A DNA stretch of 24,000 bases, from positions 13,232 through 37,231 of the forward strand of contig NZ_LXYG01000015.1 in the NCBI RefSeq assembly GCF_001650905.1, given 5' to 3'. Below are positions 8,625 to 23,000 of the stretch, in pieces. Each line of letters starts with the position of its first letter. The first letter of the stretch is position 1. Below the pieces are notes generated by a model that was given only the letters and a program-made list of their open reading frames with translations, made no database searches and had not been told where the DNA came from. Source of the stretch: Balneola sp. EhC07 (GTDB lineage Bacteria; Bacteroidota; Rhodothermia; Balneolales; Balneolaceae). A program made the translations under genes and the position numbers.

Positions 8625-8653
8625 AGCACGTTTATTTTAATTCTGAATTTAAA

Positions 8654-8681
8654 AGCTCTGATGAAAATCAGGGCTTTTTTT
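8654..8681. terminator. Strong hairpin terminator shared by convergent pdhC (+) and the MotB-like gene (-)
   Basis: 9-bp stem agctctgat (8654-8662) / atcagggct (8667-8675, one G-U pair on the + transcript), GAAA tetraloop, T7 tail to 8681. A4 lies on the other side, so weaker function on the minus strand is possible. The stop codon of the minus-strand gene (8680-8682) abuts it. Confidence 0.8.
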
Positions 8682-10413
8682 ATATCCGTTCATTCAGATA
8701 CATAACAGGAGATAATTCTGAACTATCACGATCGAGAATTGTATAAAGTTCGTTTATTTCATCCCAATCTGAAAACGGTCTTGTTAGCAAATAATAACGT
8801 CCGTTGCTAAAGGTCCTGATACTACTTTGTACATTCATTTCACTTCTAAGTCGTTCGGAAAGTTGATCTACTTCCTGTTTAGAAGAAAAAGAACCCAATT
8901 GTATCTGGTAAGTAAACGTATATTCTGAGACAGTAGAGGGGTCATACTTTATAAAAGCATCTTTAAGTATTTCGATATTCTGTATAGCCTCTAATCTTTG
9001 TAAGGCTGTTGAAATATCGTTTATAGAAGCAGTTAGTACTGTATATGCCTGAAGAGATTTTTCTTCTACAACTGCTTCAATATTGTATTCCTGAGCAAGG
9101 GTTTCTTTAAATGATAAAGCTCCTTGTTCATTTTGAAAGAAAGCCAGTTGAATTTGATATTTAAGAGCCTGAGGCCGTTCCTTTCCATTGTTATAGCATT
9201 GTTGAACAAAACCTGTTATTTGGCTTTTTCCCAGTTTCTCTTCGATAGTACTTTGCAAAGCCATAGTTTCAGAAAAGGAAGTACTACTGGCCGTTCTGGT
9301 TGAGAACAAGGAGTTATTATACATTATCTCAAATTCGTAACCGGTTTTTTGTTCCGTTTCTTTGGAAAAAGCTAAGCTGTTAAAAAAGGATTCAAAGCCT
9401 CCGGCCTGAACTGAATACCTGCAACCGTTTTCAAAATTTCCGGTGTTTACGTTTCTGATTTCCGCTTTTGAAACAGGAACAGTTGGGGTAGAGGTAGGTG
9501 CAGAGATTTGTACAGGGGGCTCTTCTGTTTCTTCAGCAATAGCCTCTTCATTCGATTCAGCTTGTACATCTGTTCTTGCTAAATCATCAGAACTATTTAC
9601 TGCATCTGATTCTTCCGGTACTTCAGCCTCAGCATTAGTCGATTCATCATTTGATCCCAATTCAGGCTCGGAGGATTCCTGATCAGTAGAAACAGAATCT
9701 GCTTTTGCCATTTGTTCAGGGCTTGAATAAAATAATCTGAGAACAACTCTTCTGTTCTTATCTTTACTGGCAGGATAAGGATTGCCCTGTTCATCAAATT
9801 CAACTAAAGGTCGGGAGTCAGCATAACCGGATGCTTTTAAACGTTCCTGAGCAATTCCCATTTCACTGAAATACTTTACAATATTAGATGCTCTTGAGGT
9901 AGATAACTCCCAATTCGAATCAAAGTTAGCGGAAGAAATAGGAACATTATCTGTGTGGCCTTCAACGTCTATTTCAAAATCGTTATAGGATATGATCCTG
10001 AAAGCTGCCAAAACACGGTTAAGGATTTCTGATGCTTCGTTTTCTAAAGTAGCGCTTCCTGAGCTGTATAGATCATCACTTTTGAATCTAATGCGTACAT
10101 CATTTAGTTCTCTGAATATCTCAAGCTTACCTTGTTCAATTTCTGGTGCCAGCAATCCTTCAAGTTCTTCTTTAATGTTTTCAATCGGTGTAGTGATAAA
10201 CTCGGTTTCATTCAAAGAAGATTTGAATAAATCAGAAACAGAAAAGGGCTCTCCATCATTTAAATCTGAGAAAGAAAGTAAAATGACCAAAAAACCAAGA
10301 AGAATGGTAATAATATCAAGATAACTTACCTGCCAACTGTCGTCATCTTCACTTTCAATTTCCTGCTTAGGATACAGTGAATTCTTTGTATTATTTGACT
10401 GATCTAAACTCAA
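8680..10413 (-). CDS. MotB-like stator protein with OmpA-like peptidoglycan-binding domain, acidic linker and three C-terminal SPOR-like repeats
   Basis: 577 aa. N-terminal MotB signature SWQVSYLDIITILLGFLVILLSF with a conserved Asp in the single TM (Asp33, codon 10315-10317; counterpart of E. coli MotB Asp32). OmpA-like core EGHTDNVPI...NWELSTSRASNIVKYF...GYADSRPL...NRRVVLRL (aa about 100-228). Asp/Glu/Ser-rich linker (aa about 232-315). Three repeats of the SPOR pattern (YSVQAGGFESFFNSLAF..., YQIQLAFFQNEQGALSFKETL..., YQIQLGSFSSKQEVDQLSERL...). Confidence 0.8.
   Translation of the reverse strand: MSLDQSNNTKNSLYPKQEIESEDDDSWQVSYLDIITILLGFLVILLSFSDLNDGEPFSVSDLFKSSLNETEFITTPIENIKEELEGLLAPEIEQGKLEIFRELNDVRIRFKSDDLYSSGSATLENEASEILNRVLAAFRIISYNDFEIDVEGHTDNVPISSANFDSNWELSTSRASNIVKYFSEMGIAQERLKASGYADSRPLVEFDEQGNPYPASKDKNRRVVLRLFYSSPEQMAKADSVSTDQESSEPELGSNDESTNAEAEVPEESDAVNSSDDLARTDVQAESNEEAIAEETEEPPVQISAPTSTPTVPVSKAEIRNVNTGNFENGCRYSVQAGGFESFFNSLAFSKETEQKTGYEFEIMYNNSLFSTRTASSTSFSETMALQSTIEEKLGKSQITGFVQQCYNNGKERPQALKYQIQLAFFQNEQGALSFKETLAQEYNIEAVVEEKSLQAYTVLTASINDISTALQRLEAIQNIEILKDAFIKYDPSTVSEYTFTYQIQLGSFSSKQEVDQLSERLRSEMNVQSSIRTFSNGRYYLLTRPFSDWDEINELYTILDRDSSELSPVMYLNERI
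8683..9423 (-). repeat. Three tandem SPOR-like protein repeats inside the MotB-like CDS
   Basis: Protein-level repeats start near aa 331, 417 and 500. Each begins [YR]Y[SQ][VI]Q[AL]G/A.F... followed by an amphipathic helix and a second beta hairpin, as in SPOR (sporulation-related repeat) domains. Diverged at DNA level. Confidence 0.55.
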
Positions 10414-10424
10414 TTTCCGCTACC

Positions 10425-11222
10425 CTAAAATTGTTGACTTGTTCTATGCATATGAGCTTTGAGTTTGTCGTAGATCTGAAGCGAAGATTTTTGCTGTTGA
10501 ATCAACAGAATTCCTTCCAAAATCAGTTTTTCTCTGAAAAATTGAAGAGAAGCAATATTATTCATCTTTTTTGCCATTGGAATAAAGATGAAATTCCCAA
10601 TTATGATACCATAAAGAGTGGTCATAAGTGCAGCTGCAAGTCCTGTTAATAAAGAATCCATTTCATTAAAACCGGACAGAATAACGATAAGTCCAAATAG
10701 TGTTCCCAGCATACCGAAGACGGGTGCTGTTTTCCCCATACTTGCAATTATTTGATTGATCTGCTGTTGTCGTGTAAATGTTTCCTGAATATTTATTTCG
10801 GCTAACTCACGAAGATCTTCTGTTGAATAATTGGTATCTAAAATTGAAAAGAGATACCCTTCAAAACGATTTCCATACTCCTCACTTAATTCAGAAACAG
10901 CTTTAATTTTATTGATCCGAATTCTTTTTTGCCACTCTAAGATTTTTTCAATGTCTGTTTCAAGTAACTGATCATCTATATTGCTTTGAGAAAAAAGCCT
11001 TGTACTTTCTCGTAGTGCTCTAATGACTTTCTTAAAGGGATAGCTAATGAATACACTTGCTGATATACCTCCAAATACTATTGCAAGACTTGGAAGGTTA
11101 AGAAACTCATATTTTGATGGAATCATATTGTATTGAGCGAACCCAACCACAAGTAGAGCTCCCCATACTAAAATTGCTAAGGAAACTAAGAAACAAAAAA
11201 TGTTTAAAAATGATGTGCGCAT
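10425..11222 (-). CDS. MotA/PomA-type stator channel protein (MotA_ExbB family, 4-TM flagellar-stator architecture)
   Basis: 265 aa. TM1-TM2 pair, then an approximately 100-aa charged cytoplasmic loop. TM3 APVFGMLGTLFGLIVIL and TM4 LMTTLYGIIIGNFIFIPMAKK keep the conserved prolines. MotA-type C-terminal tail REKLILEGILLIQQQKSSLQIYDKL (compare the MotA consensus EGIL.IQ.G.NP). 11 nt upstream of the MotB-like gene. Confidence 0.85.
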   Translation of the reverse strand: MRTSFLNIFCFLVSLAILVWGALLVVGFAQYNMIPSKYEFLNLPSLAIVFGGISASVFISYPFKKVIRALRESTRLFSQSNIDDQLLETDIEKILEWQKRIRINKIKAVSELSEEYGNRFEGYLFSILDTNYSTEDLRELAEINIQETFTRQQQINQIIASMGKTAPVFGMLGTLFGLIVILSGFNEMDSLLTGLAAALMTTLYGIIIGNFIFIPMAKKMNNIASLQFFREKLILEGILLIQQQKSSLQIYDKLKAHMHRTSQQF

Positions 11223-11257: not shown

Positions 11258-11737
11258 TCATTCTATTAAGCCTTGTCTCTTTAACTCATCGATTATAGCA
11301 GGAGAGGGGGGTATGGGTAAGTTCTCATCCATTTCGAGAGCTCTTCTCCAAAAAGCCACGAAGTTCTCAGTAGAACCCAATCCCAAATAGATGCTCCCTT
11401 TCAAAGCAAGCAGATCCGCAGTTTCCTTTACCTGTAAAGCACGGTTAATTAAAAATAGAGCGTCCTGATACTCTCCACTATAAAATTTCTGTTGAGAGAG
11501 AATATAAAGCGTGGTAATCCTGTTGGCTTTCGTTTGATAGTCTTTATGAAGTTCTTCTTTATATACCTGCATCAATGAATCTCTTCGGGCCTTTTCAAGA
11601 TCTATTTCCTCAGGATCGTTTGTATCAGAACTCTCCGTTTGAGTTAAAGGACTTTCATTTTGATCTGATTCAACGGGGCCATTAACCGATGTACTTTTAG
11701 TACTTCTGCAAGAAAACAGAAACGATATCCACATCAT
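11258..11737 (-). CDS. TPR-repeat lipoprotein (putative)
   Basis: 159 aa. Short signal with a lipobox-like FLFS/C (Cys10). Ser/Thr/Asp/Glu-rich tether. C-terminal TPR module (FYSGEYQDALFLINRALQVKETADLLALKGSIYLGLG...WRRALEMD). That module is paralogous to the C-terminus of the 993-aa usher-like protein. Confidence 0.6.
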   Translation of the reverse strand: MMWISFLFSCRSTKSTSVNGPVESDQNESPLTQTESSDTNDPEEIDLEKARRDSLMQVYKEELHKDYQTKANRITTLYILSQQKFYSGEYQDALFLINRALQVKETADLLALKGSIYLGLGSTENFVAFWRRALEMDENLPIPPSPAIIDELKRQGLIE

Positions 11738-11774: not shown

Positions 11775-13601
11775 TTATTCTTGATCTGCTTTGCTTAGTT
11801 TTAACGATTTTCTAAGAGAACTGACCAATTTCTTTTTGGCCTCTGCATTAATTTGATGTTCACCGTTTATAGATTCAAGCTCAAGGCGAATTAATTGTTG
11901 CTCGCGTTTTGGCCTTCCATTTAAAATTTTATCTATAGATGCTGTTTCAAGCCCAATTAATGCTTCCAGTAATGTGGAAGTGTCTAGTTCTTCAACACCA
12001 TTTTTGACTACTTCGTCTTCTAATTCAGGAATCTGGTCTATAGTAAAGAATTCTTTTTCTAATATTATACCTACTTGTGAGCCTGTAGATTTCAACTGCT
12101 CGATATATCTTCGCTGTTCGTCTACAGGAAGATTTTCAAGAATTGGTAAAATATTTTCAACACCAAAATCCTGCTCATGTACATTGTCTCTTACTAAGAT
12201 TGCTTTTTCAAACAATCCGCTGGAAATTTTACTCTGTTCTTTATAGGAGAGCGTATGCAGAGTAGACATTTTAAGCATAATTTCTGCGGCTCTGGATCTT
12301 TCAAACGTATTTAAGATAGAAGCGGCTTTATCCTCAGGTAAGTAATCAATTATGAGGGCTGCACTTACATTGTTTTCAGTTTTTATAAGCTCAGTTAACA
12401 GATCATCAGATAGGTGAGTCAGAAACTTGAACAGCCCAAGCTTAGCATGTTTTTTTTGTGATTTTTCATCGGTGCTTTCATCCTTAATAATAGAATTAAA
12501 GTACTTGGCAGCTCTGTATTTTTCATCAATAGACATTGGGGGTAGATTTCGTATAGCTACCTTAATAGTCTCTAGTTTTTCTTCGTCTATATGATTTTGG
12601 AGTAATTTAAGAGAGCTGGAATCAATAGATGAAACAACTTCAGCAACATTTGAAGGTCCATTTTTTTCGTCACTATCAATCCAGAATTCGAAAACCAAAG
12701 AAACCTCCTGTGGATATTTGAAAAAGTTTTCTGAAACTAATTCGAACTCAGAAACTATATCCCGGGAATGTTCTTTAGAACTTCCGAAGAAGGAAAGATT
12801 ACTATCGGGGTTTAAACTTCCTTCCACCGTAATGTCACTTTTAAGATTATCTCTTTGAGACTGGAAATCAGATTTATCTCTGGAGTTTCTAAATATTCCG
12901 TATCCAAATAATCCAAGTAAAAATACTGCAAGTAAAATTATTTCAACCAAATAGTCTTTGAAAGAACTTAAGAGGGGTTTAGGCTCCGGCTCTTCGGTAT
13001 TAGTTATTACAACAGCAGGTTCAAAATCCGGATCAGGGATAGCAAGTTGAGTAATATTTATTACATCACCTCTGGTGAAATCAATTTTAGCAGCAAAACC
13101 AGTTACACGTCTCATAAAGTCTAAATCAGTATCAGACAGGGAGGTATCGGCATATATATTAACAGCAAGGCTATTAAGCTGTAAAGTCTTATAAGTAGTT
13201 TGGTTTGTAGTATTTTGAGGAGTTGTTTGTACAGTTTGGGAATTTTGGAGGTTTTCATCCGGAAGAAAAGGGAGGCCGGGCAAAAAGCTTTGTGAATTTC
13301 TTGTTACAGTTTGAGTACCGGGTGTTTGTAAAGTTTCTTCTATAAATTCAGCTTCAATATTAACGTCTACAAAAAATTTCTTTCTGTCAAAGTGATTAGA
13401 AAGTATTAGAATAATCTGTGAATCGTAAGCCTGTTCAAGTGAAGCAATTTGTAGCTGTCCGGATTGAGAGATGACACCGGAAGATTGAGCTCTTGCTGAT
13501 AAGCCTGAAATGCATAAGACTATTAAGAGAGAGAACAGATATCTCAGCATTAAATACTTCCTCAAATTTTTTTTAACCAACGTATTCATTTTACATATCA
13601 T
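11775..13601 (-). CDS. Bitopic inner-membrane protein: periplasmic FliF/SctJ-like ring-building-motif region fused to cytoplasmic FliG-like (middle + C-terminal torque) domains
   Basis: 608 aa. N-terminal signal/anchor (LRYLFSLLIVLCISGLSARA/Q). Periplasmic aa about 40-215 with two helix-strand modules resembling RBMs (LEQAYDSQIILILSNHFDRKKFFVDVNIEAEF; LNSLAVNIYADTSLSDTDLDFMRRVTGFAAKIDFTRGDVINITQL). TM aa 217-237 (LVEIILLAVFLLGLFGYGIF). Cytoplasmic ARM-like repeats: FliG_M/MgtE_N-like TENNVSAALIIDYLPEDKAASILNTFERSRAAEIMLKMSTL, and FliG_C-like EFFTIDQIPELEDEVVKNGVEELDTSTLLEALIGLETASIDKILNGRPKREQQLIRLELES...AEAKKKLVSSLRK. The latter aligns to the remembered FliG_C consensus MFVFEDI..LDDR.IQ.VLREVD..DLA.ALKGAS.E...KI..NMSKRAA..L.E.LE...P.....EEAQ..I....R.L. 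Met5 (13589) or Met18 are alternative starts. Confidence 0.65.
   Translation of the reverse strand: MICKMNTLVKKNLRKYLMLRYLFSLLIVLCISGLSARAQSSGVISQSGQLQIASLEQAYDSQIILILSNHFDRKKFFVDVNIEAEFIEETLQTPGTQTVTRNSQSFLPGLPFLPDENLQNSQTVQTTPQNTTNQTTYKTLQLNSLAVNIYADTSLSDTDLDFMRRVTGFAAKIDFTRGDVINITQLAIPDPDFEPAVVITNTEEPEPKPLLSSFKDYLVEIILLAVFLLGLFGYGIFRNSRDKSDFQSQRDNLKSDITVEGSLNPDSNLSFFGSSKEHSRDIVSEFELVSENFFKYPQEVSLVFEFWIDSDEKNGPSNVAEVVSSIDSSSLKLLQNHIDEEKLETIKVAIRNLPPMSIDEKYRAAKYFNSIIKDESTDEKSQKKHAKLGLFKFLTHLSDDLLTELIKTENNVSAALIIDYLPEDKAASILNTFERSRAAEIMLKMSTLHTLSYKEQSKISSGLFEKAILVRDNVHEQDFGVENILPILENLPVDEQRRYIEQLKSTGSQVGIILEKEFFTIDQIPELEDEVVKNGVEELDTSTLLEALIGLETASIDKILNGRPKREQQLIRLELESINGEHQINAEAKKKLVSSLRKSLKLSKADQE
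11802..12053 (-). other. FliG C-terminal (torque-helix) like domain within the 608-aa protein
   Basis: aa 517-600. Conserved positions versus the remembered FliG_C consensus: F-x-F/T-x-D, E-[VL]-D-T, L-x-x-A-L-x-G, K-I, K-R-x-x-x-L-x-x-x-E-L-E. The KR...ELE segment occupies the position of the charged torque helix that contacts MotA in flagella. Confidence 0.55.
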
Positions 13602-13618
13602 AGGAACTTTTTATACTC

Positions 13619-16600
13619 CTAGTTTCCTGGTTGAGTTCTTATTAATTGGTCTAATACTTCAATATCCGGAATAAAGATATCAGGATTAAATTCTAATGCT
13701 GTATCCCAGTTTTTTTGAGCTTCTTTTTTATCACCTTGTAAGTAATACAGACTTCCTTTTAAAGCATAACCCTGAGCGGTTTCAAATAGGCTCAAAGACT
13801 CGTTGACTAATGTCAGAGCCCTGTCAATATCTCTGTTATAAAAAGCAGTTTGTGCCTGGATAATCAATCTTAATGTCCGATCAATATTTTCATCATATTC
13901 TTCCTGAAGTTGAATTATTTCATCCGATTGGCTGATTTCTGCTAATATGCTTGTATCAGGTACTATTTCAATGTTACGGATGTCAAAGTCTTTTGGAACA
14001 AGCACTATGCTAAGCCCTTCTATGAAATCTCCTTCCGGTATAGACCTTACCTCAAAGTTAGGTAAACTATCGCGTATTTTTGAATCTAAAATATCTAACT
14101 GACTCTGATCAATGCTTAGTTTATACTTTCCGGGAGGTATCTCAAAAGAATAAAAACTCCCATCTGAAAATGTCCTGATCTCTTTAAAAAAGTCACTATC
14201 AATTGAAGAAATTATAACTTTAAGGCCGGCTATTCCGGATTTTCTTCCATTTTCAAAAAATCGTTCAACTGTTCCTTCAACAACACCGGACATATAAAAT
14301 GGAATTTCCACTTTCTTGAATCGATTTGGATCGGTAATCAAACCAAAATTTTCAAACTCCGGTACTAGCATAGGATTTCTTATAGCTCCTTTATTCAATT
14401 CCATATTGTAGTAAAAATAAGGCTGCATCTGCGTGAAATAATGGACTCCATTTTTGGAAAAGTTCATTGCACCTGATCTTGTGACACGCAGAGCATTTTC
14501 ATTTATCAGGTCATCTTCTTCATCAAAAGTTCCGTTATTATTGTTATCAACGAAAAGTTTAACGGCAGTACCTGATCTGCCAACTTGTTCTCTACTGGTA
14601 AATAAGAAATTATTATAATTTGTATCGTAACCTATAGACCCTCTGAGGTTTTGCGTTAAATTGTAATTGTCTCGAATAGAACTAAAGTTAGAACTGGACC
14701 TTACCTTGTTGAAATCGATACTAAAGCTAAATCTGACAGAGTTAAACTTATTAAAGAAATTTCTACCTACTGAAAATTGAAATCTTCCATTTTTGAAAAT
14801 GCTTCTTGAGATAAATAATTGTGCAGATTCAATTTCTTTTTGAATAGGCAAATAACGCATTTGAGCTCTCAAAAAAGTTCCTTTTAAGTAGGAGGGGATA
14901 TTTCGATTACGCGAAATTGTATATGTAACTGAGTTTTCAATTGCAGCTAAACTTGTTGGAGAAAGAATATCAAACCGCCCAAAATATCTATCGATATAAC
15001 CTATTCGGACATTAAATTTATTAAATCGAGAATTTGCATCCGCTCTGAACGTTGTAATACTGGATGATTCACCAAAACGAGAAAAGGCAGAAACTCTTAC
15101 ATTAAGAGGGGTAGAGCCGAATGAAAAAGGGTAGAACAGAGTGCTGCTTATTCGTTTATCATCATTAGAAGGATTATAAATACTAAATCCGGATGAGTAA
15201 TTTATAAAATCAACATTAAAACTTGCTGAATTAGGATAAACAGCATTTAATGTAGATCGATAGAAAGCATCGGTTGCTCCTTCAAGAGTAAAAATATAAT
15301 TCGTGGATATTCTGGAAGAAAGAGACGAAATAAAAGTTGGCAAAGTAGTATGAAATCCTTCATAATATTCAATACCAGCCTTAGCAGTAAGCCAATCAGT
15401 CAATCCATATGATCCCGATCCTTGTGCTGTTAGTACTCGGTTGGACGTGCCTATCAAAGGATTATCTAGTTCACCGAGGTTTACTATGTAGTTAAACTCG
15501 CCGGCCGGCTGGAAGTTAAAAGGAACCTGAATACGATTTGACCTTTCTATGATTTGACCGGTAGGACCATAAATTCTTAGATCTAGTTGAGTTGCACCAT
15601 AAGTAAGCGGGGCTAAGAACCTGTAGTCACCGGCTTGATCAGAAATTTGAAAATCTATTAGTGCATTATTAAGGTAGAGTTCCACTTCTGATTGAGGAAT
15701 AGTAGTGCCCTGAACCTCAAATTCATCAAATAGTCGTCTAGGCTCTACCGGTTCATTTGAAAAACGAACTCCGCTGTATGGGCTTTTATTTACACCATCT
15801 GTAAGAGTTTGACCAATGGTCAATTTTGTAATTATATTTTGATCTCTAAAGTATCTTCTCCACCTAAGATTATTAGTGGAAAAGTTTGAAAAGTTTTCAG
15901 AAAAGCTCCCAAATAACGAGCCCTGAAGATCTCCTCCATAAAGTTGTAAACCAATATTACTATTATAGTTGTATATATTAACTTGATCAGATAAGTTTGC
16001 AGAAAGGTTATAGTCGACAAATCCACCATCCAAGAAAGGTTTCTTCCTCTTAAATTTAAGGTCATAATTATTTTCAGAGAAACGGTTGTTGTCGGCAACT
16101 CTTCGTTTTTGGTTTCTTAATACTTTCTGTATTACGGGGAGTTCTTTCTGTGTAATCAAACTAAGTCTTAGATTCCCGAAGTCAACCATAAAATCCAACT
16201 GAAATATATCATAGAAAAATTCAGGCTTTAAATAGAAATCTATTTCTTTGATTAAAAAATCCTCTGAAGAAATTTGATGAGTTTCGTTTCCGAATCTGAT
16301 AAAATTGTCCTGGAGATTTATGGAATATGGAGTTTGTTCTGAAGAGAAATTTCCCGATATAATCAAACCATCCTGATTATTTTCTATACCAAGGAGATTG
16401 AAGATTTCATTTACAGGGAGGTAAAAATTGTCATCTTTATAATAAGAGATAACAACAGTATTTATTATTCCGCGATGCCTGAATTCAAGATATACTTCGG
16501 ATTCGTCAGAAGTATTCTGAGCGGAAGCTTCAGGTTGTGTTAGAAGTACACAAAAGAGAAAGAAGCATATCTTTACAGTTATTTTGAACCAATCTCTCAA
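13619..16600 (-). CDS. Usher-like outer-membrane assembly protein with CarboxypepD_reg-like domain and C-terminal TPR module
   Basis: 993 aa. Signal peptide (FCVLLTQPEASA/Q). N-terminal domain resembling usher NTD (YLEFRHRGIINTVVISYYKDDNFYLPVNEIFNLLGIE). Long beta-strand-rich, aromatic/Asn/Ser-rich barrel-like region. Plug-like segment FEVQGTTIPQSEVELYLNNALIDFQISDQAGDYRFLAPLTYGATQLDLRIYGPTGQIIE (compare the usher pattern V.G...p.a.V.v..NG..i....v.aG.F.i.dl....G.l.v.v....G). Ig/CarboxypepD_reg-like GVVEGTVERFFENGRKSGIAGLKVIISS...FSDGSFYSFEIPPGKYKLSI. TPR at aa about 905-993. Sits next to the chaperone-like and pilin-like genes. Confidence 0.55.
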   Translation of the reverse strand: MRDWFKITVKICFFLFCVLLTQPEASAQNTSDESEVYLEFRHRGIINTVVISYYKDDNFYLPVNEIFNLLGIENNQDGLIISGNFSSEQTPYSINLQDNFIRFGNETHQISSEDFLIKEIDFYLKPEFFYDIFQLDFMVDFGNLRLSLITQKELPVIQKVLRNQKRRVADNNRFSENNYDLKFKRKKPFLDGGFVDYNLSANLSDQVNIYNYNSNIGLQLYGGDLQGSLFGSFSENFSNFSTNNLRWRRYFRDQNIITKLTIGQTLTDGVNKSPYSGVRFSNEPVEPRRLFDEFEVQGTTIPQSEVELYLNNALIDFQISDQAGDYRFLAPLTYGATQLDLRIYGPTGQIIERSNRIQVPFNFQPAGEFNYIVNLGELDNPLIGTSNRVLTAQGSGSYGLTDWLTAKAGIEYYEGFHTTLPTFISSLSSRISTNYIFTLEGATDAFYRSTLNAVYPNSASFNVDFINYSSGFSIYNPSNDDKRISSTLFYPFSFGSTPLNVRVSAFSRFGESSSITTFRADANSRFNKFNVRIGYIDRYFGRFDILSPTSLAAIENSVTYTISRNRNIPSYLKGTFLRAQMRYLPIQKEIESAQLFISRSIFKNGRFQFSVGRNFFNKFNSVRFSFSIDFNKVRSSSNFSSIRDNYNLTQNLRGSIGYDTNYNNFLFTSREQVGRSGTAVKLFVDNNNNGTFDEEDDLINENALRVTRSGAMNFSKNGVHYFTQMQPYFYYNMELNKGAIRNPMLVPEFENFGLITDPNRFKKVEIPFYMSGVVEGTVERFFENGRKSGIAGLKVIISSIDSDFFKEIRTFSDGSFYSFEIPPGKYKLSIDQSQLDILDSKIRDSLPNFEVRSIPEGDFIEGLSIVLVPKDFDIRNIEIVPDTSILAEISQSDEIIQLQEEYDENIDRTLRLIIQAQTAFYNRDIDRALTLVNESLSLFETAQGYALKGSLYYLQGDKKEAQKNWDTALEFNPDIFIPDIEVLDQLIRTQPGN
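13661..13864 (-). other. TPR module at the usher-like C-terminus, paralogous to the lipoprotein module at 11309-11506
   Basis: Hand alignment of usher-like aa 914-978 with lipoprotein aa 79-143: 25 identical residues over 65 ungapped positions (FY...AL.L.N..L...ETA...ALKGS.Y...G........W..ALE......IP). Similarity continues to both C-termini after a 1-residue shift (D.L.R). Confidence 0.7.
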
Positions 16601-16636: not shown

Positions 16637-17470
16637 TTATTGTATTTGAACGGTGGTACTGGAAGCTGAGGGCGACATTTGGACTAGATCTTGTTCAGAT
16701 ACGTCGTTACGTTCTGATACAAATTCTACTTTAACCTGATAGCTACCAGGCTCCATATCTTCAATGTTAAAATTTTGCCCATGAGTGCCGTCAAAATAAA
16801 AGCTGGTTGATAATGATGAAGTTCTCATAATTTTCCCATCTTTAATTATGGACGTAGTAACCGTACCTAAAAAAGGCGAGTTTCCAGTGCGTTCAAAATC
16901 AGATAATATCTGTATCGTATTTTCATCAATCATTCTTGTTCTGATTTGATTGATGTTAATACCGGTATTTGTTTCTCCAACTTTATAAAATAACCCGGTA
17001 ATTTGTTCAAATTTCACTCCAATTTGAGCATTTACAGCGTCAGAGGCTCCAAGCTCTAATGGAGGGCTTTCCGGTGTTGAAGTAGTTCTTATGCGAGCCC
17101 AATAAGTCTGTTCAACCAAATCTTGTGAAGCGTTTATTCTTAAACGAACGATTTGACGACTACCACTTTGAAGTACAAAATTTTGAGGAAAGGCCCTTAC
17201 GTTTTCCGCTATGGAATAATTTTGTGCAATTTCTGAACTATCCCTCACAAAACTTTTATCACCAAATTCGTTAGTATCAAAATATCCAAATAGAAAATCT
17301 ACAGAGATTTCTTGTGGTTGTTGAGAATTATTGATAACCATAAATGTTCCAAATCTGGAATTGTCATCAAGAAACATGTTTGTAGGTGCAATTGTAACCT
17401 GCGACAGAACTGTTGCAGATAAAATCACACATAAAAATAACCCGCCTGTAATAACCCTTATTATATTCAT
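16637..17470 (-). CDS. Periplasmic pilus-assembly chaperone-like protein (PapD/MSP Ig-fold, two-domain)
   Basis: 277 aa. Signal peptide (LFLCVILSATVLS/Q). N-terminal pattern VTIAPTNMFLDDNSRFGTFMVINNSQQPQEISVDF and FPQNFVLQSGSRQIVRLRIN...QTYWARIRTT resembles the PapD_N consensus (i.P.r.i......s..l.v.N.....; l.PP...l.pg..q.vRi.....e..f.l.v.e.p). All-beta second domain. Position between pilin-like genes and the usher-like gene. The canonical PapD Arg8 is not obviously conserved. Confidence 0.45.
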   Translation of the reverse strand: MNIIRVITGGLFLCVILSATVLSQVTIAPTNMFLDDNSRFGTFMVINNSQQPQEISVDFLFGYFDTNEFGDKSFVRDSSEIAQNYSIAENVRAFPQNFVLQSGSRQIVRLRINASQDLVEQTYWARIRTTSTPESPPLELGASDAVNAQIGVKFEQITGLFYKVGETNTGININQIRTRMIDENTIQILSDFERTGNSPFLGTVTTSIIKDGKIMRTSSLSTSFYFDGTHGQNFNIEDMEPGSYQVKVEFVSERNDVSEQDLVQMSPSASSTTVQIQ

Positions 17471-17542: not shown

Positions 17543-17574
17543 AAAAAAAAAGTCCCGCTTTTAACGAGACTTTT
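17543..17574 (-). terminator. Intrinsic terminator after the 183-aa pilin-like gene (intra-cluster attenuator)
   Basis: Minus-strand RNA AAAAGUCUCG-UUAAAA-GCGGGACUUUUUUUUU: stem GUCUCG/CGGGAC (one G-U pair) extendable by A-U pairs, followed by a U9 tract. Lies 22 nt after the stop at 17596 and about 70 nt before the chaperone-like start. Confidence 0.65.
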
Positions 17575-17595: not shown

Positions 17596-18147
17596 TCACT
17601 GATAGTTAACAGTGAAAGTTAAATCTCCGGAAGCACCTGCAGTACCACTGTCAGAAGTATAAGTTCCGGCAGCTTGACCTGAAAGTGCACCTAAGTTACC
17701 ACCGATGTATACAAATAATGCACCGCCAGCAGAAGTTTCAGTAGCTGCACCTGCAGTTGCTTTAGTTACATCACTTGAACTTGCAATTGCATCTGTACTA
17801 TTCGCAGAAACATCAGGAGTGAAAGTCATTGAATTAGTTCCGTCACTTAATGTAACAGTTGCTTGATCCCAGTCAATAACTAACTGAGTTGTGTTAGCAG
17901 CAGAAATGGAGAATTTTCCAAAAGTTGCGCCACCACCAACATCAGCAGTGTTAGTACCTTGAGGATCAAGAACAGGAGAACCTGTATCCTGAATGTTTCC
18001 GAAACTTACATCAGAAACGAAGGTAAGTGCAATGTCAGCAAGAATAACAGCAGATGTGTTAATATCTTGTGTTTCCTGTGCATTAGCTACAGGATTAGCA
18101 AAAGCAACAAGAGCTAAAGCAGTAATGATATATTTTAAATTTTTCAT
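17596..18147 (-). CDS. DUF4402/SCPU-like secreted pilin candidate (probable major subunit)
   Basis: 183 aa. Signal peptide MKNLKYIITALALVAFANPVANA/Q. Thr/Ser/Ala/Gly-rich all-beta composition. Motifs SFGNI about 25 aa after the cleavage site and C-terminal GTYTSDSGTAGASGDLTFTVNYQ, matching my memory of DUF4402 proteins (...G.Y.g...vtV.Y-x end). Own upstream 120-nt gap and downstream terminator. Confidence 0.7.
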   Translation of the reverse strand: MKNLKYIITALALVAFANPVANAQETQDINTSAVILADIALTFVSDVSFGNIQDTGSPVLDPQGTNTADVGGGATFGKFSISAANTTQLVIDWDQATVTLSDGTNSMTFTPDVSANSTDAIASSSDVTKATAGAATETSAGGALFVYIGGNLGALSGQAAGTYTSDSGTAGASGDLTFTVNYQ

Positions 18148-18186
18148 AGTTTTTTAATTTGTGTGAAGTAGAGTTGTATTCTTTAT

Positions 18187-18217
18187 TCAAGCTAACGACT
18201 ATCTGATTTGTTTCAAA
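18187..18217 (-). promoter_or_regulatory. Candidate Bacteroidota-style promoter upstream of the 183-aa pilin-like gene
   Basis: Minus strand TTTG (18217-18214) - N19 - TAGCTTGA (18194-18187). This is a partial match to the Bacteroidetes sigma-A consensus TTTG-N19-21-TAnnTTTG (last two positions mismatch). It lies in the 120-nt intergenic gap. Confidence 0.25.
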
Positions 18218-18267
18218 TTAGAGTGTTTTAATGAAGATTTCTTAATGTTTCTAAATAAAGAGTGTGG

Positions 18268-18801
18268 TTATTCATAAGTAACACTTACAACCACTTCTGC
18301 AGTGTATATTCCATTAGGGATGTTTCCTACATCAATACCTCCATACACATAAAGGAACATTTCCTGCCATACATCTCCGGAGTTGGAAAGATTTTCATCT
18401 CCGTCATAGATTGATATTAATCCTTGATTATTAGATAAAGGCACAGCATTGTTGATATTATTTACTCCTGAATTATTATAAGAGGCTTCTAATTGCAAAG
18501 GGATACGTTCTGTTACTGCAGGATTAATATTAATGAGCTCTTCAGGAACCAACATGTTAATTTGTATATTTTGAGTATAATAAGCTCTTATAGAAAACAC
18601 TCCCATTCTTACATCGCCAATCCGAACTTCTCTGTACCCCGAATTTGAAACCACGTTTCCAAAATCGAGTGATTGTTCAACGGTCACATTTAATTCAGGT
18701 TCAATTTTAAGGCGTAGATTGATAAACTGGCTATTAGCTGGTATAAGGTCAAGCGTTACCCAAATAAAGCTTATTAGCATTATGATCGATGACTTAATCA
18801 T
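18268..18801 (-). CDS. DUF4402-like secreted pilin paralog (minor subunit candidate)
   Basis: 177 aa. N-terminal hydrophobic signal. LDFGNV motif, IPLQLEASYNNSGVNNINN segment (shared with the 216-aa paralog), and C-terminal GIYTAEVVVSVTYE. Its start overlaps the upstream gene stop by 8 nt (ATGATTAA). Confidence 0.6.
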   Translation of the reverse strand: MIKSSIIMLISFIWVTLDLIPANSQFINLRLKIEPELNVTVEQSLDFGNVVSNSGYREVRIGDVRMGVFSIRAYYTQNIQINMLVPEELININPAVTERIPLQLEASYNNSGVNNINNAVPLSNNQGLISIYDGDENLSNSGDVWQEMFLYVYGGIDVGNIPNGIYTAEVVVSVTYE

Positions 18802-19444
18802 AATTTATCGTTACAGAAATACTTGAATTGTAACTGCCTGCGTCAACGTTGCCTATATTAATTGATCCATATATATATAGATATGCAGTTTCATTGAATA
18901 TGCTCGGATCATATCCTTCATAAACAGGGGTTGGGGGAGGGCCTGGAGGACCATTAGTTCTTTGTAATATCTGAAACTGAGCACTTGCTACATTAGATAA
19001 CACCGTGATGTTAACTGATTCATTAACATTGTTATTACCCCGATTAGCATAAGCAGCTTCTAAGGTAAAAGGGATTCTGCAAGAGGGGTCCGTTTCACAT
19101 CCAAGATCTCCATTTAGCAAAAGATAGTTATCAGCTGTAATGTCTACTAACACATCCAGATATTTAACACCCTCGAGGGTCAATATTTTTGCATTAACTA
19201 AATCGATAGACGCCGGGCCTTGATTTTGTATCAACGTGCCGAATTCTAATTCTTCAGATGGATTAAATTCTGATAATGAAATGCTATATGCACTACTATA
19301 CTGACCAAAGTCAATTTCCTGAGCAGAAACAGATGTAGAGCTACTTATACTTGTAATTAAAAAGACAATGCAACAAAAAACAGAATATTTAAGATATGCC
19401 GGTGATTTTTGATAAGAAGCTATTTTTATTAAAATGCTATTCAT
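18794..19444 (-). CDS. DUF4402-like secreted pilin paralog with Cys pair and Pro-rich insertion
   Basis: 216 aa. Signal ending SSTSVSA/QE. LEFGTL motif, IPFTLEAAYANRGNNNVNE, and C-terminal GSYNSSISVTINYD. Unique GCETDPSC and NGPPGPPPTP insertions. Confidence 0.6.
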   Translation of the reverse strand: MNSILIKIASYQKSPAYLKYSVFCCIVFLITSISSSTSVSAQEIDFGQYSSAYSISLSEFNPSEELEFGTLIQNQGPASIDLVNAKILTLEGVKYLDVLVDITADNYLLLNGDLGCETDPSCRIPFTLEAAYANRGNNNVNESVNITVLSNVASAQFQILQRTNGPPGPPPTPVYEGYDPSIFNETAYLYIYGSINIGNVDAGSYNSSISVTINYD

Positions 19445-19484
19445 TTAATTAATGTCTACGATCATTAAAATTACAATGCCAACA

Positions 19485-19988
19485 TCATATGTAATCAATC
19501 TCTATGGTAAAGTCTCCTTCGTAATTACCTGGAACTGCATTTGTAATATTAATTCTTCCACCAATCCAAAAGTAATATCGGCCCTCAAGACTAAATTGAA
19601 TAGATCTGTTCTCTGTATCTAAAAGTTCTGATGTAGATTGGTTTTCAATAGAGTTGCCGGAAATTTCATACATAAAAGTTAATGTTGATGTACCATCAAC
19701 TTGAGTTAATACAATTTCCGGAAGATATGTGAGTCTGAAAGCTGCTTCGGGATTACCGGTAGCAATCATAAAGCCCGCATTAATACTGTTGATCGGATTT
19801 ACGTATAGTTCTTGTTGTCCGGGCTGTACATTTCCGAACGTCATAGACTGAACTGTAATTAAATCAATACTGGAAACTATATTAGCGCCTACCTTAATAT
19901 CTCCAGAAACCTGAATATTTTGTTCTTGAGCAAATAGAAAATGATTTGTACTAACTAAAATAATGAGGGATACGACTAATTTTTTCAT
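19485..19988 (-). CDS. DUF4402-like secreted pilin paralog (most divergent)
   Basis: Signal MKKLVVSLIILVSTNHFLFA/Q. Met at 19988 is preferred; the longest ORF starts at 20003 with MQLFSMKK. MTFGNV motif and C-terminal PGNYEGDFTIEIDYI. Confidence 0.6.
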   Translation of the reverse strand: MKKLVVSLIILVSTNHFLFAQEQNIQVSGDIKVGANIVSSIDLITVQSMTFGNVQPGQQELYVNPINSINAGFMIATGNPEAAFRLTYLPEIVLTQVDGTSTLTFMYEISGNSIENQSTSELLDTENRSIQFSLEGRYYFWIGGRINITNAVPGNYEGDFTIEIDYI

Positions 19989-20039
19989 GCTGAATAATTG
20001 CATATAAAATTAATAATTACCAGTTAATTCTTTTTAATA

Positions 20040-20089: not shown

Positions 20090-23000
20090 TTATTTTATAA
20101 GAGTAAATCGCTCAGTGTAAATTTGAGAATCTGTTTGAAGACGATAGAAGTAAATCCCACTTGCTAAGTGCTCAGCTCTATAGTTTATGTTATAAGTGCC
20201 TGCAGTCATTCGTTTATTTAACAACGTGGAAATTTTCCTTCCAAGAATATCGTATACAACCAAGCTTACTTCAGAATCTACATCCAAGCCAAACGGAATT
20301 GTAGTTGTTGGATTGAAGGGGTTTGGATAGTTTTGTGATAAGAAAGATTTTTCCGGGATATTAAGTTCGATTTCTTCTGTAGTAATTTTCAGAGTGAACC
20401 GCGCATCATCGGCTTTTTTTCGGATAACTTTTTGTTTTGTATATGGATTAGCAACTTTGGCTTTGCTTTTGGTTGAGTGAAAGAATGTATATTCTTCCTG
20501 ATCAATTAGATCTATTTCCTTGTCAGTTTCATTGTCAATCAATGAGATCAACCATTCATCAGGGATATTATCAAAGTTTATACCTCTAATTTTGAAATCG
20601 CCTGAAATCGGAAACCCTTCTTTATACCCGTTTATATTAACAGGAAGCAAATACCTGTTTGTAAACTCCAATGGAAGATTGTTTATGACTAACGGAGTTC
20701 CGTCATCTAACAAACTAAAGATTTCTAAACGATTTGAAGTAAAAGGAAGCAGTTCAAATGCATCAAAATTATCTTTTGCTTCAGATGCATTTTTAGTAAA
20801 CATAAAGCTTACATCTTTTTTTAATCCGTTTGAGGTAAGTTCCAAAGTAAGTAATGGAATATCATCTGTTTGTTCTGTTCTTATTTCTTTTCTGAGAAAT
20901 GCCCCACCTGTTGTTTTAGCATCAGTAGTAACTTTTAAAACAGGGCTTGAAGCATTTGCTTTAATCCAGAATCCCTGGAATGGAGCAATTAAACCACTTC
21001 CGATTGTTCCTGTAGTTCCATTCCAGGTTAGATACTCTCCATTACCACCATTAGCTGCCGGATCCCAAACATAAATAGTGTTTTCGATATTCGTTTTTGT
21101 CCAGCTTGGAGAATCATCCCAGTCAATGGTGGCACCAAAAGGATTACCCACTAAATTCCAGCCAGTATCTGCGTTAGCGGTGTAAGTTACTCCAAAGTCT
21201 ACTTCACCAGCTGTTCCGTTAAATTCTTGTCCACTAACATCTAAAGTATCCGGAAGAGGGTTGTTATATCTGGCATCTGCAGCAATATCTCCAAAGAAAA
21301 ATACAAAAATACCCTGACCTTCTACTAAAGGGTCAGTAGCATTTCCTGGAGCTCTGTATCGTTGATTATCAGTGCCTTCAAAGCTTTCTAAATAAGTGAG
21401 TACATTGGGTTGTAAACTGTCAAGAGCCGCATTTCCAAGTGTTGAGCCTGTAAAGCCCTGAGTTAATGTCCCGTCCAAAAGATCACCAAATGTAGAAGAA
21501 ACAGGAGAGGAGAGAATACGCCATCCTCTTACACCTGATATTTTTCTTTGAAAACGTAAAGTTCCGGTTCCATATCTAATACCTTCCACGACTAGATTCT
21601 TTCCACTTGGTATCAGTAACTCGCCGGATGTCATAATAAGACTGTCATTGATAGCGAGGTTCTCTTCTACAGTTACGCCATTAGCATTATCAATTACAAG
21701 ATTGGTGTATGCATGAGGGTTAGTAATACTTTGGGCTGAAACCCCGTTCATAACAACTGTTCCAACATTTATAGCACTTACATCCAGAATATCACCTCCA
21801 ACAGTGATGCTGTCAGCATTGGTTCCAAGTACACTTCCGCCAGATAAGTTGCCTGTAATTGTGAAATTTATACCTCCGGAAATGGTTAAAGAAGCACCGG
21901 TTTCCATAGAAACGGATGAGACACTTGCTCCTGTTACATCTACAACAGGTAGTTCATTTCCTCCCCCCGGTGTAACAGGTATAAAAACAACGGAAGACGG
22001 TCCGGGAACAGTACCAACATTCCAATTGCCTGTATCTTCCCAGTCAGAGGCTAAACTTGCAGAACCTAACTGGCTTTCCCAGATATGAGTAAAAGCAGCA
22101 AATTCTACAGTAGCATTGTCAGTAATTGACACAGCATTTACTGTTCCGGTTATAGTAGCAGTCTCGGCTACCATAGTTGAAGTTAAAGTATCAGAATAGC
22201 TTCCGTCACTATTATCAATTATAGAACCACTTGTACTGGCAAGAGTACCTGTCGTAGTTGATAAGGTTATGGCATCTCCACCTGTAGTTATATTATTACC
22301 AAATTCGTCTTTCAGATTAACAGTAATAATAGATGTACTTGTCCCATCATTTAGAATAACAGTTGGTGAAGCGGTAATTAAAGATGTTGTTTCTGATGCA
22401 GCTCCGGCACTAACCAAAAAACTGTTACTCGTCCCGAATTCAGACCCAGCAGAATTTGTAGCAGTGATTGTACATGATCCTACACTGGAAATGCTCACAC
22501 TTGTAGAAGACAATACTCCGGAAGAGAAATTGGCAGAAGTTCCTTGTCCGGTATCCATCGTACAACTGGATGAAATAACTACAGTGCCATTAAAAGTAGT
22601 AACGGTGGTTGAGGTGCCATCAATAGCAGTAATTTTAATACTAAAAGTTTGGCCGGCAGTTTTAGAACTGATATTCCCTGAAGGAATACGTTCTATCAGA
22701 AAAGACGTAAGCGTACCAGCATTTACTATATCAAATGTAGAACTTGTATCTGAATTTAATCCTGTGCTGGTCGATACAAGTCTTTTTGTACCAATAGCAT
22801 CGATAGCCAAAGTGTCAAATTCTGATATACCTAATGCATTAGTTTCTATTGATGTGGATTGGTTCAGATTACCACTGCTTTCCGGCGAAAGTGCAATAGA
22901 AATATCTACTCCTGATTGTTCAATGCTGTTCCCAAATTGGTCTACCAGCTGTACTCTAACAGCAGGAGTAATAGAGCTATCTATATTAGTAGTTGAAGGC

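Follow-up and report, generated by a model that had tools for sequence, protein, structure and literature searches.

The gene at positions 11775-13601 (minus strand) of a 24,000-nt stretch of the genome of the marine bacterium Balneola sp. EhC07 (GCF_001650905.1, contig NZ_LXYG01000015.1, positions 13,232-37,231 of the forward strand; this whole stretch is referred to below as the window) encodes a 608-residue protein, starting with ATG, in which FliF from its third ring-building motif (RBM3) to its C-terminus is joined directly to a complete FliG comprising N-terminal, middle, and C-terminal domains. FliG is the defining torque-receiving part of the flagellar rotor. The operon in which this fusion gene is found has the order pilin-like genes, chaperone-like gene, usher, FliF-FliG, TPR (tetratricopeptide repeat) lipoprotein, MotA, and MotB. 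What the locus suggests is a rotor and stator of flagellar type that serve some output other than a flagellum, the rotor having shrunk to a single polypeptide. Our favored interpretation, held with a probability of roughly 0.55, is that a MotAB-driven ring of the FliF-FliG protein passes its output by way of TPR modules to a chaperone-usher pilus. The analysis consisted of sequence and structure-model comparison.

The cytoplasmic half of the fusion was assigned to FliG by family profiles and by fold. Searched against Pfam, it matched FliG_M at residues 402-466 (E=6e-9; 36.4 bits against a cut-off of 25) and FliG_C at residues 504-596 (E=6.5e-8; 33.3 bits against a cut-off of 23.3). These matches lie far beyond chance and thus confirm the fusion, which had been proposed from a sequence-only reading of the window. 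Thirty-nine homologues, 21-86% identical to the protein of the window, were aligned (alignment A1), and the alignment was used both for a family profile and for an AlphaFold model. The profile, when compared to the PDB, retrieved the middle and C-terminal domains of T. maritima FliG (1lkv; E=3e-28, residues 394-603 of the fusion), full-length FliG (3hjl; E=1.6e-22), and the N-terminal domain FliG_N (5tdy_B; E=1.6e-4, residues 313-379). A Foldseek search with the model found full-length FliG in cryo-electron microscopy structures of the C-ring (E=2.4e-8, 312-333 aligned columns), and hhalign of the fusion with residues 113-310 of E. coli FliG gave a probability of 96% at E=1.5e-9. PF14842 is present in many of the homologues. 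All three helical FliG domains were recognized, in the order N, M, C. The sequence-only reading had named only the middle and torque domains, both of which scored above their Pfam cut-offs; the FliG_N domain, which it did not name, makes the FliG complete. MgtE_N also matches residues 393-446, and a generic MgtE_N/ARM assignment of the cytoplasmic part was ruled out by the specific FliG_C and FliG_N matches.

Within the protein, helices resembling the FliF C-terminal tail together with the FliG_N-like domain occupy residues 276-372 (12486-12776 of the window, minus strand, as are all features of the operon given below), as placed by the 5tdy_B profile match, Foldseek, and PF14842 in the homologues. 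The middle domain follows at residues 392-466 (12204-12428; Pfam FliG_M and the 1lkv alignment) and the C-terminal, or torque, domain at residues 504-607 (11781-12092; Pfam FliG_C and hhalign). The equivalent of the torque helix, RPKREQQLIRLELES, lies at residues 563-577 (11871-11915), where R566 corresponds to R281 of E. coli FliG and is invariant in the 39-homologue alignment, and E574 corresponds to D289 and is conserved in at least 90% of the homologues. The charged segment KR....L...ELE had been suspected of being this helix; its position and its R281 and D289 equivalents bear this out, but D288 is represented by leucine. The FliM-binding EHPQR motif is cut down to a near-invariant glutamate, E409, with HPQ reading NNV here and not kept in the family. 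With the FliG equivalog model TIGR00207 the fusion scored 48.3 bits, below the cut-off of 226.7. Proteins 99-100% identical to it are present in metagenome-assembled genomes of Balneola sp., with the annotation "FliG C-terminal domain-containing protein" in some cases and "flagellar motor switch protein FliG" in others.

The AlphaFold model of the fusion (mean pLDDT 70) begins with a hydrophobic helix at residues 2-32, followed by a helix at 47-68, strands at 76-97 and 129-151, a helix at 157-170, and a strand at 180-185; a disordered, low-confidence loop at residues 98-131 joins the two long strands. The alpha-beta-beta-alpha-beta order indicates that the periplasmic part is one RBM whose first two strands are stretched into a collar-like hairpin. 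This RBM3-like domain with its beta-collar-like hairpin, spanning residues 47-186 (13044-13463), was identified from the model, from Foldseek, and by profile. About twenty FliF S-ring/RBM3-collar structures were retrieved by Foldseek at E=5e-5 to 5e-4, with TM-scores of 0.5-0.57 on the target; the best of these (8z5v_A, 7d84_A, 8zdt_A, and 6sd1_A) had E-values of about 5e-5 to 2e-4, and SpoIIIAG was a weak fold match. Pfam YscJ_FliF_C (PF08345) matched residues 116-186 at E=0.008 and 17.1 bits, below its cut-off of 23.8. The family profile compared with FliF residues 404-559 gave a weak match (E=0.067; residues 159-315 of the fusion), and the N-terminal profile compared by hhalign with the single sequence of E. 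coli FliF was likewise weak (E=0.044 over 38 columns). When that N-terminal profile (A5, residues 1-295) was run over 1.84 billion representative proteins, it yielded 246 matches at E<=1e-3, among which canonical FliF proteins, having strong PF01514 and PF08345 matches, were retrieved at 2.4e-7 to 9.4e-7. The FliF assignment is made on the Foldseek results and the large-database profile search.

Two short motifs mark this region. An RGD motif before the last RBM3 strand (residues 177-179; 13065-13073) is invariant in the family and aligns to KRGDSLNV of E. coli FliF (within residues 395-432); in canonical FliF representatives the corresponding position reads RGDxxSI. The hairpin tip carries an LPGLPFLP motif (residues 107-114; 13260-13283), recognized from family conservation, with PGLP invariant in the 39 homologues and near-invariant in 76 distant ones. 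Of 133 family representatives, 114 have the pattern PG[LIVMF]P, which is absent from all four canonical FliF proteins checked, these being E. coli FliF and three database representatives. The collar is short relative to that of FliF. Two periplasmic RBM modules had been read from the sequence; an FliF RBM3/collar is there by both fold and profile, but only a single RBM is present. The further description of these modules as SctJ-like fails, since RBM1 and RBM2, the SctJ-homology region, are absent: there is no PF01514 match in the fusion, and the model shows one RBM. By the tests of RBM1/RBM2, EHPQR, and equivalog score, the protein is neither an orthodox FliG nor an orthodox FliF.

A transmembrane helix follows the RBM at residues 210-238 of the model (12888-12974), containing the hydrophobic run LVEIILLAVFLLGLFGYGIF from residue 218, in agreement with the single membrane span predicted earlier at residues 217-237; a disordered linker then leads to an all-helical region at residues 276-607. 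At the N-terminus, the hydrophobic segment of residues 1-38 (13488-13601), a helix in the model, ends in a conserved SARA|Q junction. The [A/S]-Q junction has Q39 kept in at least 90% of the 39 homologues, and the A-x-A|Q pattern is common to other secreted proteins of the operon. From this pattern the segment is probably a cleaved signal peptide, and otherwise would be a first transmembrane helix. Profile and fold comparison, by which the sequence-only reading could have been refuted, came out in its favor: they identified the cytoplasmic part as FliG including FliG_C, and the periplasmic part as the RBM3 and collar of FliF.

The stator genes lie two genes from the fusion, with only the TPR gene between, just as the sequence-only reading had described. 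MotA (10425-11222; 265 residues) matched Pfam MotA_ExbB at 1.9e-18, the NCBIfam models for MotP, PomA, and MotA at 1e-29 to 1e-33, and those for TolQ and ExbB at only 1e-2 to 1e-3; solved MotA and PomA structures were retrieved from the PDB at 1e-20 to 1e-23. The conserved prolines of the third and fourth transmembrane helices are kept, in APVFG and IPMA. MotB (8680-10413; 577 residues) consists of a plug, a transmembrane helix having the channel residue Asp33 in a YLDIIT motif (from residue 31), an OmpA-like domain, an acidic linker, and two SPOR domains; the Pfam matches are MotB_plug at 6.6e-7, OmpA at 1.2e-14, and SPOR in two stretches. Equivalog scores were below cut-off for both proteins, the best MotA model giving 115.5 against 394 bits and the best MotB model 152 against 283. 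On these profile matches and motifs the stator is assigned to the flagellar branch, with a plug, a channel aspartate, and an OmpA-like peptidoglycan anchor. SPOR domains bind septal peptidoglycan. In Gracilimonas clusters lacking the motor genes the SPOR domain sits on the usher, and it sits on MotB here; judged from these sequences, the domain seems to move between components. In some loci of Gracilimonas/Aliifodinibius type (L029, L030, L033, and L047) the MotB match covers only about 230 residues.

When one genome per species was scanned, 35 loci came up, every one of them in Balneolales; a cultured type strain, Gracilimonas tropica DSM 19535 (L031), has the whole cluster. The ten-gene order is identical in every one of the 35 loci with enough flank, and every related locus with enough flank has a dedicated MotA/MotB pair two genes downstream of the fusion. 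The operon is under purifying selection, with dN/dS values of 0.02 in MotA, 0.05-0.08 in the fusion, 0.07 in the usher, and 0.11-0.13 in the TPR gene. No gene of the operon is better conserved than MotA, whose identity between loci is 68-99%. No flagellar gene was found within the 24-kb window or in flanks of 10 kb on either side of the 35 loci, the search having covered these stretches only.

Directly upstream of the fusion gene, with 17 nt between, is a gene for a protein of 993 residues (13619-16600) whose fold became apparent only from a structure model. Pfam returned nothing informative except TPR (among 13 homologues, 2 are recognized by the Pfam Usher family), and its sequence profile compared with the PDB gave TPR matches only. 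In the AlphaFold model (pLDDT 81.7) an N-terminal domain is followed by a large barrel, then by two C-terminal domains of beta-sandwich type and a helical tail, and Foldseek matched the model to FimD and PapC at E=1.7e-29 to 1e-15 over up to 949 aligned columns. The protein is, by its modeled fold, a true FimD/PapC-type usher with an added TPR domain. The tail occupies residues 882-986 (13643-13957), where the model shows helices and TPR_2 matches residues 942-974. The sequence-only reading had drawn attention to the TPR and MotAB genes, which are indeed conserved, and had overlooked this TPR-tailed usher, the strongest clue that the gene context offers.

The history of the usher gene differs along its length. 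Identity to the window in four loci (L003, L004, L005, and L007) amounts to 40-67% for the usher body and 77-90% for the fusion, whereas in another (L011) it amounts to 79-91% for the usher body and no more than 48% for the fusion. For the TPR tail, made up of the final ~93 residues of the usher, the values are 81-86% in the former four and 62-66% in the latter, so that the tail tracks the motor half of the operon. These identities describe the operon as a recombination mosaic, in which the half with the pilin-like genes, the chaperone-like gene, and the usher body is discordant with the motor half between genomes, with an apparent breakpoint just before the usher TPR tail, and by the same comparison the tail is inherited with the motor genes and not with the usher body. 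Related Gracilimonas clusters without FliF-FliG or MotAB have ushers ending in SPOR, not TPR. Taken together, the inheritance of the TPR tail and the SPOR-tailed ushers of motor-less clusters tie the usher to the motor through the TPR tail. The separate TPR protein (11258-11737; 159 residues, a lipobox-like N-terminus reading LFSC, and weak TPR matches in Pfam) is conserved in all loci and is a paralogue of that tail; tblastn with it matched the usher C-terminus in two loci (L024 and L028) at 32-40% identity.

Upstream of the usher, a secreted protein of 277 residues (16637-17470) is probably the periplasmic chaperone, as suggested by its position and by PapD_N matches in 3 of 13 homologues (best E=0.0021); it is conserved in all loci, and its profile gave no sequence match in the PDB. 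Next are four pilin-like genes (17596-20003), encoding proteins of 172, 216, 177, and 183 residues. DUF4402 matched 12 of 12 pilin-like members (best E=2e-6), and the best PDB match of these proteins was the SCPU-domain protein 8cio_A, at E=0.62. Between the gene for the 183-residue DUF4402 protein and the chaperone-like gene is a terminator-like hairpin on the minus strand (17548-17574; 12 pairs, then a T run), which resembles the classical pilus attenuator found after the major subunit gene and suggests that the 183-residue protein is the major fiber subunit. The genes for the 216- and 177-residue proteins overlap by 8 nt (18794-18801), suggestive of translational coupling. A further gene upstream of the pilin-like genes (20090-23941, minus strand) encodes a protein of at least 1283 residues with Invasin_D3 and a type IX secretion C-terminal sorting domain; its position is conserved in many loci, including a motor-less Gracilimonas cluster, and the start of its reading frame may fall outside the window.

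The intergenic gaps of the motor half are 37 nt between the fusion and the TPR gene, 35 nt between the TPR gene and motA, and 11 nt between motA and motB. A hairpin scan found no terminator-like site between the chaperone-like gene and motB. The operon ends at a strong two-way terminator-like hairpin (8651-8678), located between motB and a convergent gene for a dihydrolipoamide acyltransferase (E2). A sigma-70 promoter scan was not used, as shuffled sequence scored as well.

The family extends beyond Balneolales. The FliG part is likewise present in 104 of the 146 best non-redundant matches to the N-terminal profile, and these 104 proteins are about 450-810 residues long, most of them ~570-750. 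More than 100 further clusters of the fusion at 50% identity were found, Elusimicrobiota included and mostly with MotAB, and an alignment-seeded word search gave 18 proteins, Elusimicrobiota-like where a lineage was given. An order of the fusion gene with non-flagellar partners recurs in at least two phyla. Loci of the Elusimicrobiota type have FliF-FliG, a secreted protein of ~360 residues, a TPR protein, MotA, and MotB, one sampled locus being without MotAB nearby. The ~360-residue protein (L036, 11877-12950; alignment A6) has weak FlgO and FlgT_M matches (best E=0.0023), belongs to no significant family, and has a barrel-like C-terminus ending in YEISLLRFNF. In an Elusimicrobia genome (L036/L037, 1-8767) the five-gene module is divergent from a type IV pilus set made up of PilB/MshE-like, PilT-like, and PilC-like proteins, pilin, prepilin peptidase, and PilM; this adjacency may be a coincidence or a link to another fiber.

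Three further kinds of neighborhood were sampled. In a distant high-GC locus, genes of pilin-like and chaperone-like type come before a TPR-tailed usher, FliF-FliG with an N-terminal LysM domain, and then MotA and MotB, so that the succession of usher with TPR, FliF-FliG, and MotAB recurs there; in that locus (L043, 5751-8267) the FliF-FliG reading frame runs in frame into a lipobox (LLAGC) and TPR, the equivalent of the separate 159-residue TPR gene. A relative lacking FliG has LysM, an RBM3-like region, and a transmembrane helix in 322 residues, followed by a 160-residue TPR protein (L048, 3633-5080; L049, 3168-4615); it adjoins a gene for an usher-like protein of 967-989 residues and has no MotAB. 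In one representative (P0334) the RBM3-like region is fused to a TPR domain. MotAB was present in five of six distant FliG-bearing loci sampled and absent from the FliG-less relative. In the sampled neighborhoods, then, FliG travels with MotAB, and the RBM3 ring domain travels with TPR.

The machine encoded in the window is not a flagellum, as the locus has no genes for an export gate, rod, hook, FliM, or FliN. By analogy with FliF RBM3, the fusion would probably assemble into a ring in the inner membrane, presenting a circle of FliG_C domains to the MotA and MotB encoded two genes downstream, which would use ion flow to turn or push the ring. In Balneolales the output would most likely cross the periplasm to the chaperone-usher pilus machine. 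The TPR modules are the likely connectors, one forming the tail of the usher and the other being a separate lipoprotein; their binding partner may be the LPGLP loop, specific to this family, at the collar tip, or else the stator. The outcome might be rotation, extrusion, or retraction of a fiber. The data establish the identities of the domains, including those that build the S-ring and the torque ring in flagella, the conservation of the operon and the purifying selection on it, and the inheritance of the TPR tail with the motor genes. That the protein forms a ring, that this ring rotates, and that it is coupled to the usher are the portions of the scheme that we infer, as are the rotor function and the role of "5:2-motor client" proposed in the sequence-only reading.

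Several considerations weigh against such a motor-driven pilus. Classical chaperone-usher assembly needs no energy from the inner membrane, which leaves a motor without an obvious job there, and the geometry by which one usher or an usher dimer would match a ring of many members is awkward. In its commonest form, that of Elusimicrobiota and others, the module lacks an usher and has the ~360-residue protein instead. Three of the five classical torque charges of FliG are lost (D288 is replaced by L573, K264 by I549, and R297 by H582), and the segment that bears R90 and E98 in E. coli MotA is rewritten here as QKRIRINKIKAVSE, with a register that differs between the HMMER and MAFFT alignments. 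The chaperone and pilin assignments made above from sequence are weak. Finally, relatives in which RBM3 and TPR adjoin an usher-like gene, with FliG and MotAB both missing, indicate that the periplasmic ring may have a role independent of any motor.

The last point is also central to the alternative of a static scaffold, in which an RBM3 ring and TPR modules would position or gate the usher or another outer-membrane protein, and FliG and MotAB would only anchor or regulate it, for instance by ion- or load-dependent clamping to peptidoglycan, without sustained rotation. In keeping with this are the FliG-less LysM/RBM3/transmembrane and TPR relatives beside the usher-like gene, the static nature of the RBM rings of SctJ/SctD and SpoIIIAG elsewhere (the latter being the weak fold match of our model), the peptidoglycan binding common to the LysM, SPOR, and OmpA domains of the system, and the partial conservation of the torque charges. 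However, a scaffold of this kind sits poorly with the retention of a complete FliG having an invariant R281 equivalent, and with the presence of FliG following that of MotAB across the loci. The very strong conservation of the stator, with plug, channel aspartate, and both prolines, is moreover hard to explain without ion-driven work. We consider a static scaffold unlikely, yet a serious alternative to the motor-driven pilus.

It is very improbable that the fusion is the MS-ring/C-ring protein of a true flagellum encoded elsewhere in the genome. The database name "flagellar motor switch protein FliG" would suit such a role, as would the description of Balneola vulgaris as motile by flagella (PMC5167729). 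Nevertheless, the protein is missing RBM1 and RBM2, the part of FliF that accommodates the export gate, has lost the FliM-binding motif, and reaches only 48 of the 226.7 bits at which the FliG equivalog is called; flagellar genes, as noted above, are absent from the window and from the 10 kb on either side of the 35 loci. Furthermore, the cluster is present in Gracilimonas tropica, which is reported to be non-motile and without flagellar assembly genes (PMC9909488, PMC5167729). Reports on Balneola itself conflict, its genomes being described as without flagellar assembly genes (PMC9909488) and B. vulgaris nonetheless being listed as motile by flagella (PMC5167729), which leaves room for a chaperone-usher fiber having been what was seen. 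The idea that the fusion and MotAB are functionless remnants of a lost flagellum, for which broken flagellar pathways suggestive of gradual loss in Balneolaceae (PMC9909488) and the disappearance of EHPQR and RBM1/RBM2 could be adduced, has hardly any credibility against intact reading frames in 35 genomes and more than 100 further 50%-identity clusters, dN/dS values of 0.02-0.13, invariant family-specific motifs, and a fixed order with non-flagellar partners in at least two phyla, and a pseudogene or relic is ruled out by dN/dS and conservation.

A motor-driven pilus could be extended to a bolder and quite doubtful proposal, which we offer tentatively. The locus would encode a second kind of rotary, ion-driven surface organelle, one independent of type III secretion, in which a FliF(RBM3)-FliG ring turned by MotAB spins, extrudes, or retracts a chaperone-usher fiber through the TPR-tailed usher; the usher-free five-gene form, with its ~360-residue protein placed in the outer membrane, would then be an extant case of a flagellar rotor and stator at work without an axial structure, with a bearing on the origin of the flagellar motor.

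Comparison with the flagellar FliF/FliG/MotAB (PomA/PomB) system shows what has been retained: the RBM3/collar fold, RGD, the transmembrane helix, the N-M-C arrangement of FliG, the equivalents of R281 and D289, and the parts of the stator. In contrast to the flagellar rotor, the protein described here is one polypeptide, has no RBM1 or RBM2, and has a short collar with an LPGLP tip; there are no FliM, FliN, export, rod, hook, or filament genes nearby, and its partners are TPR proteins and an usher. Covalent end-to-start joining of FliF and FliG is shared with the engineered or spontaneous fusions of Salmonella and Vibrio (PDB 8z4d and 8z4g), and the family profile matched the fusion structure 8z4d at E=4e-20. 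Laboratory FliF-FliG fusions of Vibrio are reported to form rings still. Those fusions contain full-length FliF, total ~945 residues, and act inside a complete flagellum, whereas the Balneola fusion is natural, has 608 residues, and is non-flagellar. A natural fusion is described from Chlamydiaceae, with ~330 residues comprising an RBM2-like region and one more RBM, a transmembrane helix, and a FliG_M-like segment only (Bergeron 2016, PMC4768692); it is proposed to work with the injectisome, the organism not being thought to be flagellated (PMC4768692). Compared by its published description, the chlamydial protein has no torque domain and no MotAB partner described, whereas that of Balneola has RBM3, a full FliG, and MotAB.

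Chaperone-usher pili (FimD/PapC; archaic Csu/SCPU) resemble the upstream half of the operon in the N-terminal domain, barrel, plug, and two C-terminal domains of the usher, in the small, secreted, beta-rich subunits (a weak link to SCPU), and in the hairpin after the presumed major subunit gene. They differ in that the usher here is TPR-tailed and hard-wired to a rotor/stator module. To our knowledge, no chaperone-usher system has an inner-membrane component or motor, or a need for proton motive force. Among 5:2 ion motors, those of TonB/ExbBD, Tol-Pal, GldLM of type IX secretion and gliding, and Zorya offer a likeness in that an inner-membrane ion motor energizes a process in the outer membrane or periplasm (PMC9389320). 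The other 5:2 motors act through an extended B subunit or a TonB/TolA-like arm, whereas the client here is a FliG ring and the stator is of the flagellar branch. Periplasmic TPR/Sel1 scaffolds of flagellar motors include Vibrio MotX and Campylobacter PflA and PflB, and FlgO and FlgT are H-ring proteins. The encoding of TPR proteins together with a stator recalls this group, as do the weak FlgO and FlgT_M matches of the ~360-residue protein, a likeness that serves as a lead and comes without significant homology.

A survey published in 2025 noted that rotor proteins occur in non-motile species and asked about another function for them (PMC12199754). Our literature search found no paper describing a FliF-FliG/MotAB/usher operon, and DUF4402 in no paper of the library searched. 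We know of no demonstration of FliG working outside a flagellum, nor did that library contain one. The operon provides a concrete, conserved, and testable case for the question of rotor parts beyond motility, as it combines a one-polypeptide rotor, its own stator, and outer-membrane partners. If the usher-free form should be ancestral, the family would inform models of the origin of the flagellar motor. Should a chaperone-usher pilus indeed be the target of the motor, this would overturn the view that assembling pili of this type and keeping them in place takes no energy from the inner membrane.

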